Part shown: positions 1 through 6,146 of the stretch, one piece after another
How positions within the stretch are numbered: position 1 is the stretch's first letter
Layout: every line of letters starts with the position of its first letter
Source: a virus
Taxonomy: Duplodnaviria; Heunggongvirae; Uroviricota; Caudoviricetes
Strand: one strand, 5' to 3'
Virus record (IMG/VR): IMGVR_UViG_2645727970_000001
Span: 1-6,146 of that record
Length of the DNA: 6,146 nucleotides
The notes under the pieces: model-generated
The model's database searches: none
What the model was told of the DNA's origin: nothing
The model's input: only the letters and a program-made list of their open reading frames with translations
Translations under genes and position numbers: made by a program

Positions 1-29
1 TGGGTGTTTTATTAGTACGAATAAGCACT

Positions 30-57
30 GTGTATTCATTCCAACGAGTGAATACAC
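30..57. repeat. Perfect 9-bp inverted repeat (gtgtattca / tgaatacac) with 10-nt spacer; possible RNA hairpin or protein-binding site
   Basis: Positions 30-38 are the exact reverse complement of 49-57. No T-tract follows, so it is not a classic terminator. Confidence 0.4.
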
Positions 58-119
58 GGAGCAATGTCGCTCGTAACTAAACAGGAGCCGACTTGTTCTG
101 ATTATTGGAAATCTTCTTT

Positions 120-145
120 GCCCTCCAGTGTGAGGGCATTTTTTT
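120..145 (+). terminator. Rho-independent terminator-like hairpin upstream of the first ORF
   Basis: 6-bp GC-rich stem gccctc(120-125)/gagggc(132-137), loop cagtgt, followed by a run of seven T (139-145). Oriented for + strand transcription. Confidence 0.6.
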
Positions 146-157
146 GACGGAGGAAAT

Positions 158-469
158 ATGAAATTACGTGTCTGGCATATCCCGCAAGTTCCTATGAAGC
201 CGTTCATTGTAGAAGTGGCAAGTGTTGAAGAGGGTGTTCGCCTGATGGATGCACTGGCTGATTATGATGCCTTTCAGTATGACAACAATATCAAGCCTGA
301 CTACTGCAATGCTAACGGCCTTGAGATGTGGGATGAGAGCATTACTGATGAAGATTTATCAGAGATGGGGCTTACGGATCGCTGGGTAGATTGGTACAGC
401 GAATGCCAATGTTACGACGACCCACGTAAATATATCGAAAGCCTGAAAGAAGAAACCTCAGCAGCCTGA
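158..469 (+). CDS. Hypothetical small acidic prophage protein (103 aa)
   Basis: ORF with SD ggagg 6 nt upstream of ATG 158. Translation is D/E-rich (about 23 acidic against about 9 basic residues by my count) with several Trp/Tyr and 3 Cys. No family recognised. Confidence 0.7.
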   Translation: MKLRVWHIPQVPMKPFIVEVASVEEGVRLMDALADYDAFQYDNNIKPDYCNANGLEMWDESITDEDLSEMGLTDRWVDWYSECQCYDDPRKYIESLKEETSAA

Positions 470-504
470 GCGCGGATTTGACGCATACAAATTAAGGAGG
501 ATAT

Positions 505-1473
505 ATGAGTGAAGTAACAGATTTAGTTGTTATTGAAAAAGCAAATGCAATGACTGTATTTCAGTCTGCCGACCAGATTGAAGAAATCCTTCAAAAGGTT
601 GAACGTGAAGTTATGTCCTTTGTGCCTGATATCACAACGGCAAAGGGCAGAAAGGAGATCGCTTCTCTGGCGTATAAAGTTGCGCAGACGAAAACATATC
701 TCGATGGTCTTGGTAAAGACCTTGTTGCTGAACTGAAGGAAATTCCAAAGCTAATTGATGCTAACCGCAAGACAGTGCGCGATCGCCTTGATGAACTGAA
801 AGCCAAGGCGCGCCAGCCTCTTACTGATTATGAGGAAGAACAGGCGCGGATTAAAGCCGAAGAAGAAGCTAAGGCAGCAGCTGAAGCTCTCGCAAAGCAA
901 ATTGAGTCTGACCATGAAATAGCGATTTTGATGGATCGCGAATTTGACCGCCAAAGAGAAGAGGCAAGACTCAAAGCGGAGCAGGAAAAGCGAGAGCATG
1001 AAGAACGCTTAAAAAGAGAAGCTGAAGAGAAAGCCAGAGCAGAAGCCGAAGCAAAGGCAAAAGCCGAAATTGAAGCAGCAGCAAGGCGAGAAGCAGAAGC
1101 TAAGGCCGCAGCGGAACGTGCAGAGCGTGAACGCATTGAAGCCGAGCAACGAGCACAGCGCGAAGCAAAAGAGGCAGCAGAACGAGCTGAAAGAGAAAAG
1201 CAGGCGGCAATTGAAGCAGAACGCCGAAAAGCACAGGAGGAGGCTGAACGAATCCGGCGCGAGGCTGAAGCAAAAGAGCAAGCCAGAATAGCAGAAGAAA
1301 AAAGAATCAAGGACGAAGAAGAGCGCAGAGCAAAGGATAAAGCTCACCGGAAAGAAGTAAATAACAAAATACTTGCTGACCTTATCAAGGTTGGCGCATC
1401 AGAAGATGTTGCTAAAAATATCATAACAGCCATCGTAAAAGGCGAAGTATTCGCAACAAAAATAACCTACTAA
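505..1473 (+). CDS. Hypothetical phage protein with long central E/R/K/A-rich helical (coiled-coil or single alpha-helix) region, 322 aa
   Basis: Consensus SD taaggagg 7 nt upstream of ATG 505. N-terminal ~110 aa and C-terminal ~40 aa look globular; residues ~115-285 are low-complexity AEAKAKAE/ERAERE-type repeats. Opposite-strand ORFs across this span are repeat artefacts. Confidence 0.75.
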   Translation: MSEVTDLVVIEKANAMTVFQSADQIEEILQKVEREVMSFVPDITTAKGRKEIASLAYKVAQTKTYLDGLGKDLVAELKEIPKLIDANRKTVRDRLDELKAKARQPLTDYEEEQARIKAEEEAKAAAEALAKQIESDHEIAILMDREFDRQREEARLKAEQEKREHEERLKREAEEKARAEAEAKAKAEIEAAARREAEAKAAAERAERERIEAEQRAQREAKEAAERAEREKQAAIEAERRKAQEEAERIRREAEAKEQARIAEEKRIKDEEERRAKDKAHRKEVNNKILADLIKVGASEDVAKNIITAIVKGEVFATKITY

Positions 1474-1497
1474 TAAAACCAACATAAGGAACCACCC

Positions 1498-1629
1498 ATG
1501 ATTTACGCAATCGCGGGAGGCGCTCGCATGGGTGCCTTCCAACTAAATGAATCTTTACTTGAACGAATCACCCGTAAATTACGTGACGGATGGAAAAGAG
1601 TTGAGGTCTTATTATGCGCAATGAAATAG
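1498..1629 (+). CDS. cIII: CIII-like regulator (FtsH/HflB inhibitor that stabilises CII), short 43-aa form
   Basis: Not in the supplied ORF track (too short). ATG 1498 preceded by aagga. Translation MIYAIAGGARMGAFQLNESLLERITRKLRDGWKRVEVLLCAMK contains the ESLLERITRKLRDGWKR core that I recall from phage lambda CIII. The ORF ends earlier than lambda's 54 aa. Confidence 0.8.
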   Translation: MIYAIAGGARMGAFQLNESLLERITRKLRDGWKRVEVLLCAMK

Positions 1630-1766
1630 CCATCAATCACCAGATGCTTCGTGCTGCACAGAACAAAGCAGTAATAGCCAGATTTATTGGTGATTCCAAA
1701 ATGTGGCTTGAAGCAAATAAAGCGATGAAATCAGCTATCAACCTTCCGTGGTATCGCAGGAAATGA
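1614..1766 (+). CDS. kil: Kil-like small protein (candidate FtsZ/cell-division inhibitor), 50 aa
   Basis: Not in the ORF track. ATG 1614 lies inside the 3' end of cIII with gagg upstream. Translation MRNEIAINHQMLRAAQNKAVIARFIGDSKMWLEANKAMKSAINLPWYRRK has the FIGDxKMWxEA-type core I associate with lambda Kil / Rac KilR; position directly after cIII matches lambda gene order. Confidence 0.55.
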   Translation: MRNEIAINHQMLRAAQNKAVIARFIGDSKMWLEANKAMKSAINLPWYRRK

Positions 1767-1978
1767 GTTTTACAGATAACTGGTCAGACGAAGAATTCAT
1801 TCGTCAGATGAAAGAATTAATCGGTAACGAAGGAGATATTCATGTCACTTGCAACCACAGTGAAGGAGAGCAAGTTACAGAGACGCATGTACACGCAGAA
1901 AGCGCTAAGGTATCGCCAGAAGGGAGACCGCGAAGGAATGCGCGTATGCCTAAATGCGGCAAAGACTCGAAGTATTAA
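1763..1978 (+). CDS. Hypothetical small protein (71 aa from ATG 1763; track lists a GTG start at 1748)
   Basis: ATG 1763 overlaps the kil stop (aATGa), suggesting translational coupling. Acidic N-terminus, His/Cys-containing C-terminal half (HVTCNH...THVH...KCGK). Sits where gam/arf-type genes lie in lambda/P22-like phages but has no recognisable similarity. Confidence 0.55.
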   Translation: MSFTDNWSDEEFIRQMKELIGNEGDIHVTCNHSEGEQVTETHVHAESAKVSPEGRPRRNARMPKCGKDSKY

Positions 1979-2021
1979 ATCAGCGTTATTTCCTTGGGCC
2001 GTGTCCATTCTGAGGTGAATT

Positions 2022-2729
2022 ATGGATTTGAACAAATTCGATGAGCCATTCAGCCCTGAAGATATCGAATGGCGAATACAGCAAAGCGGTAAAACACGCG
2101 ATGGCAAGGTGTGGGCTATGGTGCTGGCTTATGTCACGAACAGGGCAATCATGAAACGCCTGGACGATGTTTGCGGCAAAGCAGGATGGCGCAATGAATA
2201 CCGCGATATTCCCAACAACGGAGGCGTTGAATGCGGCATATCAATAAAGATTGATTCCGAATGGGTAACCAAATGGGATGCTGCTGAAAACACGCAGGTA
2301 GAAGCCGTCAAAGGCGGTCGTTCCGGTGCAATGAAGCGCGCTGCCGTTCAGTGGGGAATCGGTCGGTATCTGTATAACCTTGAGGAAGGTTTCGCACAAA
2401 CATCTCTCGATAAAAAGCAGGGGTGGCACAGGGCAAAACTGAAGGATGGAACAGGATTTTACTGGCTCCCTCCATCGCTGCCGGGATGGGCAATCCCAGC
2501 ATCAGATAAAAAACCATCACCAGAAAATACCAACCAGAAATCTCCATCGGTTGACTGCGAACAAATCCTGAAAGACTTCAGCGATTATGCATCAACAGAA
2601 ACTGACAAGAAAAAACTCATCGAGCGTTATCAGCGTGACTGGCAATTAATGGCTGGCAACGAGGAGGCACAGGCTAAATGCGTTCAGGTAATGAACATCA
2701 GAGTTAACGAACTAAAACAGGCGGCATAA
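2022..2729 (+). CDS. Rad52/Rad22-family single-strand annealing protein (Sak-like phage recombinase), 235 aa
   Basis: SD gaggtga upstream of ATG 2022. Translation contains EAVKGGRSGAMKRAAVQWGIGRYLY, matching the conserved Rad52-family signature. Occupies the position of lambda bet. Confidence 0.8.
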   Translation: MDLNKFDEPFSPEDIEWRIQQSGKTRDGKVWAMVLAYVTNRAIMKRLDDVCGKAGWRNEYRDIPNNGGVECGISIKIDSEWVTKWDAAENTQVEAVKGGRSGAMKRAAVQWGIGRYLYNLEEGFAQTSLDKKQGWHRAKLKDGTGFYWLPPSLPGWAIPASDKKPSPENTNQKSPSVDCEQILKDFSDYASTETDKKKLIERYQRDWQLMAGNEEAQAKCVQVMNIRVNELKQAA

Positions 2730-3197
2730 ATGTCTCACTTGGACGGAATTATTAAAAGATTCGAGTCCAGCTACAAAGTTAATGAAACAACAGGTTGCTG
2801 GGAGTCTACCTATTCAAAAAACAAAGGAGGATACACAAAATTTGTAGCCTTTGGCGTAACAATGCTTTCTCATCGGGTTGCTTTTGAGCTTTATCACTCC
2901 CCCATTCCATCTGGGAAGATGGTTTGCCACAAATGCGATAACCCATGCTGCGTTAATCCTGAACATCTCTTTTTAGGTAGCGCGCAAGAAAACATGGACG
3001 ACAAGATAGCAAAAGGAAGGCATCGTGGAGCCAAGAAAGGTCATGCTCATCATGGTGCAAAATTAACAGAGTGGCAGGTTATAGAAATTAGGAAAAGACT
3101 CTCTGAAAAAGAGAGTCAGTACAAGATAGCAAAAGACATGGGTGTATCTCAATCAATTATAAGCAACATAAAAACTGGCAAGAGGTGGAGCAAATGA
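2730..3197 (+). CDS. HNH endonuclease (HNH_3-type, probable free-standing homing-type nuclease) with C-terminal helix-turn-helix-like region, 155 aa
   Basis: ATG 2730 directly abuts the upstream TAA (TAAATG). Motif [23 protein letters not shown] fits the H...C..C...N..H...N pattern of HNH nucleases. The coding sequence looks AT-richer than its neighbours by eye. Confidence 0.8.
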
Positions 3198-3700
3198 GTT
3201 CTCGCGGGATAAATAAGGTGATTATCCTTGGTCGGGTAGGACAAGACCCGGAAGTTCGATACTCACCATCAGGAACAGCGTTCGCTAACCTGACAATAGC
3301 CACGTCAGAACAATGGCGAGATAAAAATACTGGCGAGCAAAAGGAATTGACTGAATGGCATCGTGTTGCTGTATCCGGGAAACTGGCTGAGGTCGTGGGG
3401 CAGTATGTAAAAAAAGGTGATCAGATTTATTTCGAGGGAATGCTGAGAACCAGAAAGTGGAAAGACCAGTCAGGGCAAGACCGTTACACAACCGAGGTTC
3501 ATGTCGGAATTAATGGCGTGATGCAAATGCTTGGCGGCATTGGCGACAGCAAACAACAAGCAGCCAGCAGGCAATCACAGAAGCCACAGCAGCAATCATC
3601 ACCAGCACAACACAACGAACCTCCGATGGATTTTGACGACGACATACCCTTTGCACCAGTAACTCTCCCCTTCCCTCGTCACGCTATTCACGCAATTTAA
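3194..3700 (+). CDS. ssb: Single-stranded DNA-binding protein (phage-encoded SSB), 168 aa from ATG 3194
   Basis: N-terminus [23 protein letters not shown]...TEWHRV...[19 protein letters not shown] is close to E. coli SSB. ATG 3194 overlaps the HNH stop (aATGa); the track's GTG at 3185 is less likely. Q/S-rich linker then [11 protein letters not shown], but the frame continues 15 codons ([15 protein letters not shown]) before TAA. Confidence 0.95.
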
Positions 3701-3713
3701 TCAGGAGAAAAAC

Positions 3714-4010
3714 ATGCCAGCGCCTCTGTATGGTGCGGACGACGCACGCCGCTGTTCCGGCAATTCCGTATCGGAGGTGCTGGATAAATTCAGAAAAAAC
3801 TACGATCGGATAATGTCTCTACCGCAGGAAACGAAAGAGGAAAAGGAATTTCGCTATTGTATATGGCTTGCAGAGAAAGAAGAGCGCGAGCGAATTTACC
3901 AGACATCAATCCGACCATTCCGCAAAGCCACATATACCCACTTCCCTGAATATATCGACCCGCGCCTGCGTAATTACCGCTCACGCTATGGCGCTATCAG
4001 TAATGACTGA
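3714..4010 (+). CDS. Hypothetical prophage protein (98 aa)
   Basis: SD aggag 8 nt upstream of ATG 3714, 13 nt after the ssb stop. No recognisable motif; basic and Tyr/Arg-rich C-terminus. Confidence 0.65.
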
Positions 4011-4020
4011 GGAATTTACC

Positions 4021-4215
4021 ATGAGAGGACTTGCATACAATCCCGGCATTCTTCCGGCAGAAATGATTATTCGCCAACGCGTAAAGCCAATGCCATCGAG
4101 AGAGGAATTTCTTAAGAGAAATTCTTCTCCGTCAGTGAATCAAAACAAATATGTGACTGCTCCCCGCCCTGTCGGGCGAGGCTTCCCACTTCTCAGGCCG
4201 CAACCGTCTGTATGA
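4021..4215 (+). CDS. Small prophage ORF (64 aa as read) whose 3' part runs into the IS right end and tnpB; probably truncated or fused by the insertion
   Basis: SD tgagga 8 nt upstream of ATG 4021, 10 nt after the previous stop. The track's longer form (3868..4215) overlaps the 98-aa ORF and is unlikely. From about 4145 onward the sequence is IS-derived, so the native C-terminus is unknown. Confidence 0.35.
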
Positions 4216-4300
4216 CGGATTTACGCTGGCCTCCATGGGCAGAGACGACGTGTCCCGCCGCCTTTAGCTCCAGTATTCCTTTTTGCCGGATATTGAGTGC
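4125..4300 (-). ncRNA. Putative TnpB guide RNA (omega/reRNA) spanning the 3' end of tnpB, the IS right end and adjacent flank (predicted, not directly visible)
   Basis: Inferred from established TnpB biology: the guide RNA derives from the tnpB 3' end plus right end, with the guide read from flanking DNA. Only the hairpin at 4162-4181 is seen directly; extent is a guess. Confidence 0.3.
4162..4181. repeat. Subterminal imperfect palindrome of the IS, tnpB-proximal (right end)
   Basis: ccccgccc-tgtc-gggcgagg: 5-bp cgccc/gggcg stem with a conserved C/A mismatch, flanked by ct...ttc. Near-identical to the hairpin at 5887-5907. Confidence 0.65.
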
Positions 4301-5368
4301 TGCATTGATATCCCGGTCATGTTCAATACCGCATTCAGGGCATCGCCAGATGCGTTTATGAAGTGGCATTTCCGGCATCTTGTAACCACAACAATGGCAG
4401 GTTTTCGAACTGGCAAACCACTGGTCGAGTTTTACCAGGTGAACGCCTTTTTCTGCTGCCTTGTACTCCAGCTTTACGATGAAGCTGTGCCAGCCCGCAT
4501 CACCTATCGCTCTTGCCAGATTGTGGTTTTTCATCATGTTGGCTGTTTTCAGCGTCTCGACAATTACCGCTTGGTTTTCGTCAACAATTGCACGAGAAAG
4601 TTTGTGTTGAAAATCAGCACGGGCATTGGCAACCCGTTCGTGTAACGCAGCCAGTCGGATTCTGGCCTTTTTACGGTTCGCGCTTCCCTTTTGTTTGCGG
4701 GATAGCGCTTTTTGTTTGCGTCGCAGATTACGGCTGGCATTGATGAGATGACGAGGATTCGGAGCTTTTCCCCCATCAGACATGATGACATAGTGCTCAA
4801 GCCCCATATCCACACCAGTAATCTTTTCTTCCTCCAGATACGCTGGTTTCTCTGGTGTGGGAATACCGTCTTCACAAAGGATAGATGCGTAGTATTTCCC
4901 GGTGGCACTGCGAGTGATTGTTATGCTCCTCACTTTTCCCGCCATTACACGGTGTATACGCGTTTCTATCGGTGCCAGCTTAGGAATTTTGATGGCATTC
5001 TCCAGTACTTTAATCCCGACACAATGGTAGCTCGATTGCTTCCCATGTTTACGTTTAAACGTCGGGAATCGTGCTTTCAGCTTCGGATTAAAAAAGTTGG
5101 AAAACGCCACATCAAGATTAATCACCGCCTGTTGCAATGCCATTGAATCAAATTCTTTAAGCCAGGCATACCTGCGGGACTTCTTCGCCACAGACAACAA
5201 CGGTTTTAAATCTTTACGCGGACGTAAATTCACTCCGTGTCGCTGGTAAGCGTGTTTTTTGATGTTAAGAGCTTTGTTGTATGCAAAACGTACCGCACCG
5301 AACTGGGCATTGAGATACTCAGCCTGTTCGGTAGTGGGATATATGCGTACTTTTGTCGCTCTTAACAT
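4193..5368 (-). CDS. tnpB: TnpB (IS200/IS605 OrfB; RuvC-like RNA-guided endonuclease), 391 aa
   Basis: Translation shows a split RuvC fold with candidate catalytic residues in GVDMGLEHY (D), AVIVETLK (E) and [10 protein letters not shown] (D), plus a CxxC...CxxC zinc finger (CHCCGYK...CPECG). Full length with ATG start. Confidence 0.9.
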
Positions 5369-5412
5369 ACTCAGCGCTCATTGATATTATTCAATTATTT
5401 TAACAAATTGAG

Positions 5413-5850
5413 GTGATTTTTCAATTGAGCGAACAACATGAATCTCTTGAAGGCTTCCTTCGGAAGCGTCACAGTGTGAGCAAGCTCGTAGTACATTTAA
5501 TTTTCACGACAAAGTATCGCAGAAAACTTTTTGACGGATGCATGATAGAGCAACTACGGGAAGCTTTTTGTTCCGCCGCAGCAAAACTTGAATGCGAAAT
5601 TCTTGAAATGGACGGTGAGACAGATCATGTGCATCTGTTGGTTGCTTATCCGCCCAAACTGGCAGTCAGCGTCATGGTGAATAATTTGAAATCAGTATCG
5701 TCACGTTTGCTGTGCCAGCAAAACACACATTTACGAACACAGAGCAAAACAGGCTTGCTTTGGTCAAGATCCTACTTTGCATGTAGTGCCGGAGGTGCGA
5801 CGATAGAAACGCTCAGAACTTACGTTCAAAGCCAGTCAACGCCGGAATGA
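5413..5850 (+). CDS. tnpA: TnpA, IS200-type Y1 (HuH) transposase; translation probably starts at TTG 5425 rather than GTG 5413
   Basis: KYRRKLF near the N-terminus, HuH motif DHVHLLV, catalytic-type Tyr in LRTYVQSQ and LWSRSYF...GGA match the IS200 TnpA pattern. No in-frame ATG; GAGGTGA (5410-5416) sits 8 nt before TTG 5425. Divergent from tnpB across 44 bp. Confidence 0.85.
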   Translation: MIFQLSEQHESLEGFLRKRHSVSKLVVHLIFTTKYRRKLFDGCMIEQLREAFCSAAAKLECEILEMDGETDHVHLLVAYPPKLAVSVMVNNLKSVSSRLLCQQNTHLRTQSKTGLLWSRSYFACSAGGATIETLRTYVQSQSTPE

Positions 5851-5857
5851 TTTTTTT

Positions 5858-5875
5858 AAAGCCCTTCGGGCTTTT
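5858..5875 (+). other. Perfect 7-bp hairpin with TTCG loop just after the tnpA stop, inside the IS left end
   Basis: aaagccc-ttcg-gggcttt, preceded by seven T. Only a weak T-run follows, so it may be a structural or transposition-related element rather than a strong terminator. Confidence 0.4.
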
Positions 5876-5886
5876 CCGCCTTTCCT

Positions 5887-5907
5887 CCCCGCCCGCATTG
5901 GGCGAGG
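5887..5907. repeat. Subterminal imperfect palindrome of the IS, tnpA-proximal (left end)
   Basis: ccccgccc-gcatt-gggcgagg: same stem and same C/A mismatch as 4162-4181, same orientation, about 1.7 kb away. Confidence 0.65.
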
Positions 5908-5928
5908 GTTCTCGGCGGTTGTTTGCTG

Positions 5929-5953
5929 AACTCGCTACGGCGAGTTTTGTTTT
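5929..5953 (+). terminator. Terminator-like hairpin at or just outside the IS left boundary
   Basis: 7-bp stem aactcgc/gcgagtt with tacg loop, followed by a T-rich tail (ttgtttt). Oriented for the + strand; could terminate tnpA read-out or belong to the phage. Confidence 0.45.
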
Positions 5954-5966
5954 ATGGAGATGATAA

Positions 5967-6134
5967 ATGCACTTTCGAGTCACAGGTGAATGGAATGGAG
6001 AACAATTCAACAGAGTTATCGAAGCAGAGAACATCAATGACTGCTATGACCACTGGATGATATGGGCGCAGATAGCCCATGCAGACGTAACCAATATTCG
6101 AATTGAAGAACTGAAAGAACACCAAGCCGCCTGA
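5967..6134 (+). CDS. Hypothetical small prophage protein (55 aa)
   Basis: Not in the ORF track. ATG 5967 with ggag 7 nt upstream; translation MHFRVTGEWNGEQFNRVIEAENINDCYDHWMIWAQIAHADVTNIRIEELKEHQAA. Stop codon lies in the loop of the following terminator. Confidence 0.5.
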   Translation: MHFRVTGEWNGEQFNRVIEAENINDCYDHWMIWAQIAHADVTNIRIEELKEHQAA

Positions 6135-6146
6135 TGGCGGTTTTTT
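6127..6146 (+). terminator. Rho-independent terminator at the end of the + strand gene array
   Basis: Stem ccgcc(6127-6131)/ggcgg(6136-6140), loop TGAT, then six T to the window edge. Confidence 0.6.

Follow-up and report, generated by a model that had tools for sequence, protein, structure and literature searches.

INTRODUCTION

Homing-type nuclease genes are thought to shape phage mosaicism, with most of the evidence coming from virulent T4-like phages, and free-standing HNH homing-endonuclease genes of phages are well known. I-HmuI is a nicking enzyme encoded within a group I intron of a DNA polymerase gene. In the classification of His-Me finger nucleases, I-HmuI falls in group 2 together with the families HNH_3 and zf-His_Me_endon, a group of homing endonucleases with helix-turn-helix (HTH), NUMOD or AP2 DNA-binding modules (PMC5714182). 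In lambdoid phages, a 2025 survey describes HNH nucleases as a fourth nuclease type of the Rec modules and regards tightly packed HNH genes as probably legitimate module members, with caution about mobility (PMC12315714). In this study, we analyzed an HNH endonuclease open reading frame (ORF) of 155 amino acids (aa) in a stretch of 6,146 nucleotides (nt) of Caudoviricetes DNA, positions 1 to 6,146 of IMG/VR record IMGVR_UViG_2645727970_000001, hereafter called the window.

The window is part of the early-left operon of a lambdoid or P22-like prophage. The gene, which RefSeq already names 'HNH endonuclease', lies tightly packed inside a recombination module with the order annealase, HNH, ssb and abc2. 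We found that alleles with and without the gene (occupied and empty alleles) coexist at this site, and that the first codons of ssb are rewritten in every occupied allele. From these patterns we consider it probable that the ORF at 2730-3197 is a free-standing homing-endonuclease gene of the HNH_3/I-HmuI-like kind, lodged at, and targeting, the start of ssb. This bears on a question raised in that survey, namely whether lambdoid Rec-module HNH genes are module components or selfish passengers (PMC12315714).

RESULTS

Occupied and empty alleles of the annealase-ssb junction

An earlier note on this DNA had placed the start of the HNH ORF on the base after the annealase stop (TAAATG) and its stop across the ssb start (ATGA). 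Both junctions proved correct. The annealase TAA is at 2727-2729 and the HNH ATG at 2730-2732, and the HNH TGA (3195-3197) overlaps the ssb ATG (3194-3196), so that no intergenic sequence is left on either side. We took ATG 3194 as the ssb start, although the ORF lister proposes GTG 3185, because the product MSSRGINKV... is the canonical SSB N terminus. The features of the junction are as follows.

2022-2729, plus strand: gene of a Rad52/22-family single-strand annealing protein (annealase; Pfam Rad52_Rad22, 5e-26), the left flank and homology arm of the insertion
2715-2729, plus strand: left junction AAACAGGCGGCATAA, the last annealase codons and stop, with a weak Shine-Dalgarno sequence within
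2730-3197, plus strand: HNH endonuclease ORF, 155 aa (Pfam HNH_3)
2733-3209, plus strand: putative minimal mobile unit of 477 nt, in place of 13 nt (GCAAGCAGAGGCG) of the empty allele, by BLAST and alignment against mEp235, Huey and Sf6
3182-3190, plus strand: Shine-Dalgarno-like sequence for ssb, GAGGTGGAG, read from the sequence, in the 3' end of the HNH ORF
3194-3700, plus strand: phage ssb (Pfam SSB, 1.7e-36), the right flank and likely target gene
3197-3209, plus strand: recoded ssb start, codons 2-6, with 10 fixed differences; candidate immunity or target-site tract
3210-3222, plus strand: 13 nt common to both ssb allele types, TAAATAAGGTGAT, from comparison of loci L015 and L021 with Sf6 and the window

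We used the DNA from 2022 to 3700 as a megablast query against 50,697 phage records, none of which covered the whole query. In the phages mEp235, HK75 and mEpX2, both flanks are 98.8% identical to the query and occupy 1,215 nt where the window has 1,679 nt, and their annotation has the annealase directly followed by ssb. The annealase itself is 98-100% identical to those of the HNH-less phages mEp235, Huey and Sf6. The HNH DNA had one weak match among the 50,697 records, to a Vibrio phage (68.7%); no isolated coliphage there has the gene. In Escherichia coli, the HNH gene was present at ≥99% identity in 41 of 5,426 complete genomes, always chromosomal and always adjoining ssb, and a 600-nt probe for the empty junction matched 407 complete genomes, which puts the occupancy in this species at about 10%. 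Among IMG/VR contigs, 29 occupied loci stood against at least 120 empty ones. The species-representative genomes of GTDB yielded one locus only, so that scan is not usable for a census. Hence related copies in which the annealase is directly followed by ssb, as the earlier note had foreseen, do exist: in mEp235, HK75 and mEpX2, in the IMG/VR contigs, and in about 90% of the 407 E. coli genomes.

The closest pair of loci consists of the occupied L014 and the empty L076. For 400 nt to the left and to the right of the gene they match at 100%, and beyond that at 98.6-99.3%; a pair isogenic on the kilobase scale was not found. The left junction AAACAGGCGGCATAA is the same in occupied and empty alleles and is kept as AAACAGGCGGCGTAA in a clade whose HNH protein is 74% identical. 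Its weak Shine-Dalgarno sequence belongs to ssb in the empty allele and to the HNH gene in the window. The insertion thus leaves both neighbor genes intact and supplies a new Shine-Dalgarno sequence for ssb, whose AGGTGG is conserved at the same position in HNH relatives. Tight packing is no peculiarity of the HNH gene, since annealase and ssb also abut as TAAATG in the HNH-less allele, and other genes of the operon overlap as well.

The start of ssb is recoded in occupied alleles

The empty allele of ssb begins ATG GCA AGC AGA GGC GTA AAT (MASRGVN), whereas every occupied allele begins ATG AGT TCT CGC GGG ATA AAT (MSSRGIN). Of the 15 nt that follow the ssb ATG, 10 differ, against a background of about 99% identity, and three of the five recoded codons (Ser, Arg and Gly) are synonymous. 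When 19 occupied and 50 empty alleles of the same type were compared, only these ten positions in the 1.2 kb of annealase and ssb separated them (frequency 1.0 versus 0.0). A discriminating site inside annealase or ssb would therefore have to be the junction or the tract, as these alone tell the two populations apart. The recoded tract was found behind an intact HNH ORF in 28/28 IMG/VR and 7/7 metagenome contigs, all 35 HNH copies being full length without internal stops; of the 41 E. coli copies, 40 are full length. An annealase stop abutting a recoded ssb start, without the HNH gene, found no match in 241 million metagenome records.

Loci L015 and L021 carry an identical HNH gene and tract joined to an ssb of the Sf6 type, and the HNH-less Sf6-type ssb, in Sf6 and 41 IMG/VR loci, has the unrecoded start. 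This places the right recombination boundary of L015 and L021 within TAAATAAGGTGAT (3210-3222). The sequence AGTTCTCGCGG is identical across HNH clades of 100%, 74% and 68% protein identity; between the first two, the synonymous sites of the HNH gene are saturated (proportion of synonymous differences, pS, 0.80), yet AGTTCTCGCGG is unchanged. We also tried an argument from 'maximal recoding', by which the Ser, Arg and Gly codons would be as unlike as synonymy allows. A hand estimate gave a chance of about 0.19, and the argument is not relied on.

The unrecoded start is common to both usual phage ssb allele types, and the chromosomal ssb start of E. coli K-12, ATGGCCAGCAGAGGCGTAAACAAGGT (L203, 1126-1151), is identical to that of the HNH-less phage ssb at 24 of 26 positions. 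Only the HNH-linked ssb departs from both the phage and the host version. If the tract is the target, host ssb would therefore be a near-cognate site. This observation could point to a weapon of competition or exclusion that cuts the unrecoded ssb start of rivals, and possibly host ssb, chiefly to keep competitors out or to shut down the host, with its own spread as a by-product; free-standing endonucleases are known to cause marker exclusion in T-even phages (PMC2988022). The only PADLOC model matched by the protein, however, is the generic 'homing endonuclease' (1.9e-7). The early-left operon would moreover be silent in lysogens, by analogy with lambda, so that the gene could not protect a lysogen. 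We regard a weapon as highly improbable and as a minor rival to homing.

The HNH gene is far less diverse than its flanks

Pairwise diversity was computed among 23 occupied loci, with the following results.

300 nt upstream of the annealase gene: 0.165
Annealase gene: 0.023
HNH gene: 0.0036
Recoded tract: 0
Rest of ssb: 0.085
300 nt downstream of ssb: 0.26

The HNH gene is thus 6- to 24-fold less diverse than its flanks, and the nearest polymorphic flank sites in occupied alleles are at 2711 on the left and 3223 on the right. The unit is a discrete, nearly invariant block in diverse, freely recombining flanks, as recent repeated transfer would give.

Such a block could also be passive mosaic cargo. 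The HNH gene would have been acquired once, by an initial illegitimate or short-homology recombination and together with the first codons of a foreign ssb, and would since have drifted by general recombination, the enzyme being inactive or acting elsewhere and the empty alleles remaining uncut. The boundaries fit this account, as they fall at short shared sequences (the ATG on the left, TAAATAAGGTGAT on the right) like typical lambdoid mosaic joints; the recoded tract could be what remains of a donor ssb, and the lower GC content of the gene (see below) is compatible with a foreign origin. Inert cargo, however, is not expected to be as intact as the tract-linked and E. coli copies are, nor to keep invariant catalytic residues under purifying selection. 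The unit occurs in many flank haplotypes and no further site in 1.2 kb is differentiated, which requires repeated exchange very close to both ends. In unrelated modules, too, the HNH gene lies at the ssb start. We therefore judge passive carriage a quite unlikely, minor rival to an active homing gene.

In one HNH-bearing IMG/VR locus, L009 (2294-2997), the annealase lies in two frames (aa 1-197 and 196-235), frameshifted beside an intact HNH gene.

HNH relatives keep their position at the ssb start

In the sampled relatives of 51-74% identity, the HNH gene always overlaps an ssb start, mostly as ATGA, and the upstream genes differ: Rad52-like, Erf-type, ERF, RdgC, Sipho_Gp157, YqaJ and genes of unknown function. 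Representative loci are listed here with HNH protein identity, upstream gene and overlap with ssb.

L027-L032, Cronobacter/Citrobacter type (73-74%): Rad52-like, or an annealase alike in the C-terminal part only; ATGA overlap
L204 (68%): annealase-like C terminus; ATGA overlap
L205 (65%): YqaJ exonuclease; ATGA overlap
Vibrio phage 1.079.O (62%): ERF, with a 71-nt spacer; 4-nt overlap
Shewanella L195 (60%): unknown; 8-nt overlap
L197 (60%): RdgC-like; ATGA overlap
L199 (58%): unknown; ATGA overlap
L200 (51%): Sipho_Gp157; ATGA overlap

More distant relatives behave differently. L201 and L202 (46-47% identity) have other contexts, and in the IMG/VR relatives L033-L044 (38-48%) no ssb was detectable nearby. 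A prophage-like locus in the metagenome-assembled genome of a planctomycete (Isosphaeraceae), L045, has RecT, a 41-codon 5' fragment of ssb ending in a stop, an HNH_3 gene that is 47% identical over the N-terminal half, and a complete ssb.

L045, 2794-2919: ssb fragment
L045, 2980-3492: HNH_3 gene
L045, 3482-3916: complete ssb, overlapping the HNH stop

The L045 arrangement is possibly the footprint of an insertion of HNH plus ssb into a resident ssb.

The earlier note had described the HNH gene as wedged between a conserved annealase and a conserved ssb. The ssb half of that description stands, ssb being the conserved partner; the annealase half does not, since the upstream gene varies among relatives. 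That the enzyme lineage kept its position at the ssb start in very different phages suggests that the conserved 5' end of ssb is the homing target.

Two side observations concern the annealases. In L027, L031 and L032, the upstream annealase resembles the product of window positions 2478-2729 in its C-terminal 60-85 residues only (37-49%), a pattern that fits the C-terminal 'domain swaps' of Erf/Rad52 proteins noted for epsilon34 (PMC2629481). In addition, the annealases of the window, L027, L031 and L032, different as they otherwise are, share nearly the same final 15 nt before the HNH gene.

The HNH protein has a complete catalytic motif and an I-HmuI-like architecture

The protein matched Pfam HNH_3 (PF13392) over aa 48-89 with E=1.1e-13 and 51 bits, against a gathering cut-off of 24.8, and a PHROG HNH endonuclease family at 1.8e-33. 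Further Pfam matches, to zf-His_Me_endon and to HTH_38 (1.6e-3), were weak. An AlphaFold2 model built from an alignment of 56 homologues (mean predicted local distance difference test score, pLDDT, 88.6) has three parts.

2730-2867, plus strand: N-terminal beta-rich region, aa 1-46, with invariant C23, W24, G34 and Y35 (secondary structure of the model)
2871-2996, plus strand: HNH (beta-beta-alpha-metal) catalytic core, aa 48-89, C66-H67-x-C69-D70-N71 ... C74-x-N76-P77-x-H79 ... N88
3060-3176, plus strand: C-terminal three-helix HTH domain, aa 111-149, with model helices at aa 114-125, 130-137 and 141-149

The model places a beta-hairpin and helix at aa 64-94. The core residues H67, C69, D70, C74, N76, P77, H79 and N88 do not vary across the 56 homologues, and C66 and N71 hardly do; the protein studied here has them all, and its catalytic and zinc-binding motif is complete. 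The N-terminal region presumably contacts DNA as in I-HmuI. The C-terminal HTH is likely a sequence-reading module, an assignment that rests mainly on the model because the Pfam HTH match is below the gathering score.

The top Foldseek match in the Protein Data Bank (PDB) was the homing endonuclease I-HmuI (1u3e_M; E=4e-4, probability 1.00), aligned over 170 columns and the full length. The TM-score was 0.39 with a root-mean-square deviation of 12 Å, a low score that is expected because the protein is extended and multi-domain. I-PpoI followed, and then HTH domains of serine recombinases (resolvase/invertase) and others. A sequence search of PDB chains gave nothing significant, the best hit being an unrelated designed protein at E=0.038, so that the structural relationship came to light only through the model and Foldseek.

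The gene is under purifying selection, with a proportion of nonsynonymous differences (pN) of 0.19 against the pS of 0.80 between the 100% and 74% clades (nucleotide identity 68.6%). It stands alone, with its own ATG and stop between two complete genes. A scan of the whole window matched no Rfam family, and hence no intron, ribozyme or insertion sequence (IS)-associated RNA family; from this we conclude that the window holds no group I or group II intron.

The HNH gene is modestly AT-rich

The earlier note had read the HNH gene as noticeably more AT-rich than its neighbors. Its GC content is 40.8%, compared with 48.2% for annealase, 48.5% for ssb and 46.7% for the rest of the window. The gap to the two flanking genes, about 7.5 points, is modest (chi-square p=0.006), and just 2-3% of 468-nt segments are equally AT-rich. 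The dip is not unique, as the lowest stretch of the window, at 39.7%, starts at 1351. The GC content at third codon positions (GC3) is 39% in HNH, 48% in annealase and 44% in ssb, a difference that is not significant (p=0.13). So the AT-richness held for overall GC and not for GC3. In the 74%-identical clade, HNH lies 3-12 GC points under each flank in 4/5 loci and 2-4 points under in L032; in the planctomycete relative it is likewise under its flanks. Composition would not carry the case for homing alone. Still, a GC difference is present, and the HNH gene is far from universal at the site, the two points on which the earlier note had staked its idea of a foreign gene.

Other nucleases of the recombination module

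HNH nucleases are listed among the nuclease types of lambdoid Rec modules (PMC12315714). Under the main rival to homing, the HNH protein would be a functional part of the module and generate the nicks or ends on which annealase and SSB act during recombination-dependent replication or repair. It would be a fourth alternative to Exo, RecE and DnaQ-like nucleases, and its variable presence would be ordinary module shuffling. Several results suit this account. The gene is translationally coupled on both sides, the pairing of HNH with ssb is kept from 51% to 100% identity across distant hosts, and selection on the gene is strongly purifying. We had expected the presence of HNH to be independent of the other nucleases of the module, and this expectation was rejected: 18/23 occupied modules have no other nuclease between ssb and abc2, compared with 36/98 empty modules (Fisher p=4e-4, on phylogenetically non-independent samples and uncorrected for shared ancestry).

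Against module membership, HNH is missing from about 90% of the modules that carry these annealase and ssb alleles, including those of the isolated phages mEp235, HK75 and mEpX2, and the flanks can be 100% identical with and without it. HNH also co-occurs with other nucleases at 5/23 loci, with a DnaQ-like exonuclease in three and a gp26-like endonuclease in two. The combination of a nuclease with a sequence-reading HTH in an I-HmuI-like fold is the architecture of site-specific homing enzymes, HNH diversity is far under that of the flanks, and a housekeeping nuclease leaves the recoded ssb tract unexplained. On balance we hold a module function to be unlikely as the whole explanation. It and homing can, however, both be partly true.

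The slot between ssb and abc2 (3701-3713 in the window) is itself a second variable nuclease position in the module, as comparison of L001, L002 and L003 indicated. It is empty of a nuclease gene here, and in relatives it holds a DnaQ/Rv2179c-like exonuclease (mEp235) or a Sf6 gp26-like 'endonuclease' (phrog_2340, no Pfam match). We considered whether the 'endonuclease' of Huey and Sf6 was the same HNH gene moved elsewhere and rejected this; it belongs to the unrelated family phrog_2340 and lies downstream of ssb.

Neighboring genes and other features of the window

The remaining annotated features of the window are as follows.

158-469, plus strand: gp17-type superinfection-exclusion gene (Pfam GP17, 1.6e-55)
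505-1473, plus strand: Sf6 gp33-like coiled-coil gene
3714-4010, plus strand: abc2 (anti-RecBCD; Pfam Anti-RecBCD_p2, 4e-60), last gene of the recombination module
4161-5925: IS200/IS605-family element (Y1 transposase and TnpB), with tnpB at 4193-5368 on the minus strand and tnpA at 5413-5850 on the plus strand

Several small ORFs on the plus strand lie between the 505-1473 gene and annealase. The P22 gp17-type gene is in the same operon, upstream of the HNH gene, and only some related loci have one. The IS200/IS605 element splits the phage sequence, with homology to related prophages ending at 4160 and restarting at 5926, and changes the 3' end of a DUF2737-like ORF (4021-4215). Its top match among the 5,426 complete E. 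coli genomes is just 90.6% identical.

A promoter and terminator scan of 1900-4100 gave no more sites than shuffled sequence and none on the coding strand, so the HNH gene has no promoter or terminator detectable there. Promoter-like and terminator-like patterns occur antisense at 3097-3152, on the minus strand in the 3' part of the HNH ORF. They are probably due to chance, because the counts are not above those of shuffled sequence.

DISCUSSION

The suggestion of the earlier note that this is a free-standing homing-endonuclease gene is supported by its sporadic presence, the linked recoded tract, the low diversity of the HNH gene, the I-HmuI-like fold of its product, and the position kept at the ssb start. 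A homing cycle might then run as follows. The HNH gene would be expressed from the early-left operon during lytic growth or induction. Where an HNH-less phage or prophage shares the cell, the HNH protein would recognize that genome's unrecoded stretch from the annealase stop to the ssb start (GGCGGCATAAATGGCAAGCAGAGGCGTAAAT) and nick or cut at or near it. The break would be repaired by recombination with the HNH-bearing allele as template, for which the module's own annealase and SSB are at hand, and repair would copy the HNH gene and the adjoining recoded codons into the recipient. The donor would be immune, its own site having been destroyed by the insertion and the 10 substitutions.

Several considerations weigh against homing at the ssb start, beginning with the excess of occupied modules that have no other nuclease. 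Every step of the cycle just outlined is one that we infer. Lambdoid phages that encode Rad52-like recombinases need no nuclease to recombine at short homologies, so the mosaic pattern alone is no proof of endonuclease-driven transfer. A functional partnership would account just as well for the conserved synteny, the translational coupling with ssb and the strong purifying selection. The signal from composition is modest, with no significant difference in GC3. As for the tract, its perfect linkage is expected whatever its function, as it begins right after the HNH stop. Part of the recoding is forced, since the ATGA overlap requires an A at +4, which accounts for the second codon. The Ser/Arg recoding is not clade-wide either, because the Vibrio-phage relative has AGT AGT AGA. 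Finally, the cut made by a free-standing homing endonuclease of T4 can lie hundreds of base pairs away from its gene (PMC2988022), and the recoded tract thus need not be the recognition site.

Even with these points counted, homing at the ssb start remains the explanation that we favor, and it makes a simple prediction. Occupied and empty alleles differ by one gene and 13 nt; if the gene homes, changing the 13-nt tract of the empty junction to AGTTCTCGCGGGA should switch susceptibility to cleavage. The case sits in a well-studied lambdoid/P22-like recombination module for which isolated HNH-less phages exist (mEp235, HK75 and mEpX2). For annotation, the label 'HNH endonuclease' on a gene upstream of ssb points to a unit that is variable and probably mobile, not to a core recombination gene.

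A bolder and doubtful extension is that the gene represents an undescribed HNH_3 lineage specialised on the first codons of ssb, ranging from enterobacterial lambdoid prophages through phages of Vibrio and Shewanella and possibly as far as a planctomycete prophage. AGT TCT CGC GG... would then be a nucleotide-level immunity determinant under selection, and the enzyme might also nick the host chromosome or rival phages during lytic growth. If this were true, the similarity to the essential ssb of the host (24/26 nt) would make the enzyme a weapon of competition as well as a selfish element. In the searchable literature we found no description of these exact empty and occupied alleles, of the linked recoding of the ssb start, or of the association of the HNH_3 lineage with ssb starts.

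Among known systems, I-HmuI and I-HmuII of the Bacillus phages SPO1 and SP82 (PDB 1u3e) are alike in belonging to His-Me finger group 2 (PMC5714182). I-HmuI shares the order of an N-terminal beta region, an HNH core and a C-terminal HTH, and is the best full-length structural match. With 16% sequence identity and the low TM-score, the likeness is at the level of architecture only. Moreover, the I-HmuI gene resides in an intron, whereas the HNH gene here has none and stands alone between two genes.

In that respect the locus is closer to the free-standing HNH genes of T-even phages (MobA-E, for example MobE between nrdA and nrdB) and to the 'intronless homing' of SegF and SegG. There, too, a stand-alone gene lies between conserved genes and is sporadic among related phages; flanking sequence is inherited with it there, as may be the case here (PMC2988022, PMC2790892). 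The Mob proteins differ in belonging to His-Me finger group 1 (PF01844-like), in being found in virulent T4-like phages, and in cleavage sites that may be far from the gene. Here, in contrast, the host element is a temperate lambdoid/P22-like prophage, with the gene directly against its presumed target and with a mere 13 nt of flank that would be inherited with it.

The HNH genes of lambdoid Rec modules, such as that of ES18, resemble the present one in lying tightly packed in an early-left module with annealase, SSB and anti-RecBCD (PMC12315714); ES18 is likened here by its description only, and the accessible part of that survey describes neither presence and absence at the ssb start nor a recoded tract. 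The terminase-associated type of HK97 gp74 is likewise a small phage HNH protein, but it adjoins the terminase genes and acts in DNA packaging (cited in PMC12315714). The gene studied here lies in the early recombination module, belongs to HNH_3 and not to PF01844, and is not of the terminase-associated type, as it is not encoded next to terminase or portal genes. Set beside all of these, the locus brings no new principle; what it offers, in model temperate phages, is an unusually clean example that lends itself readily to testing.

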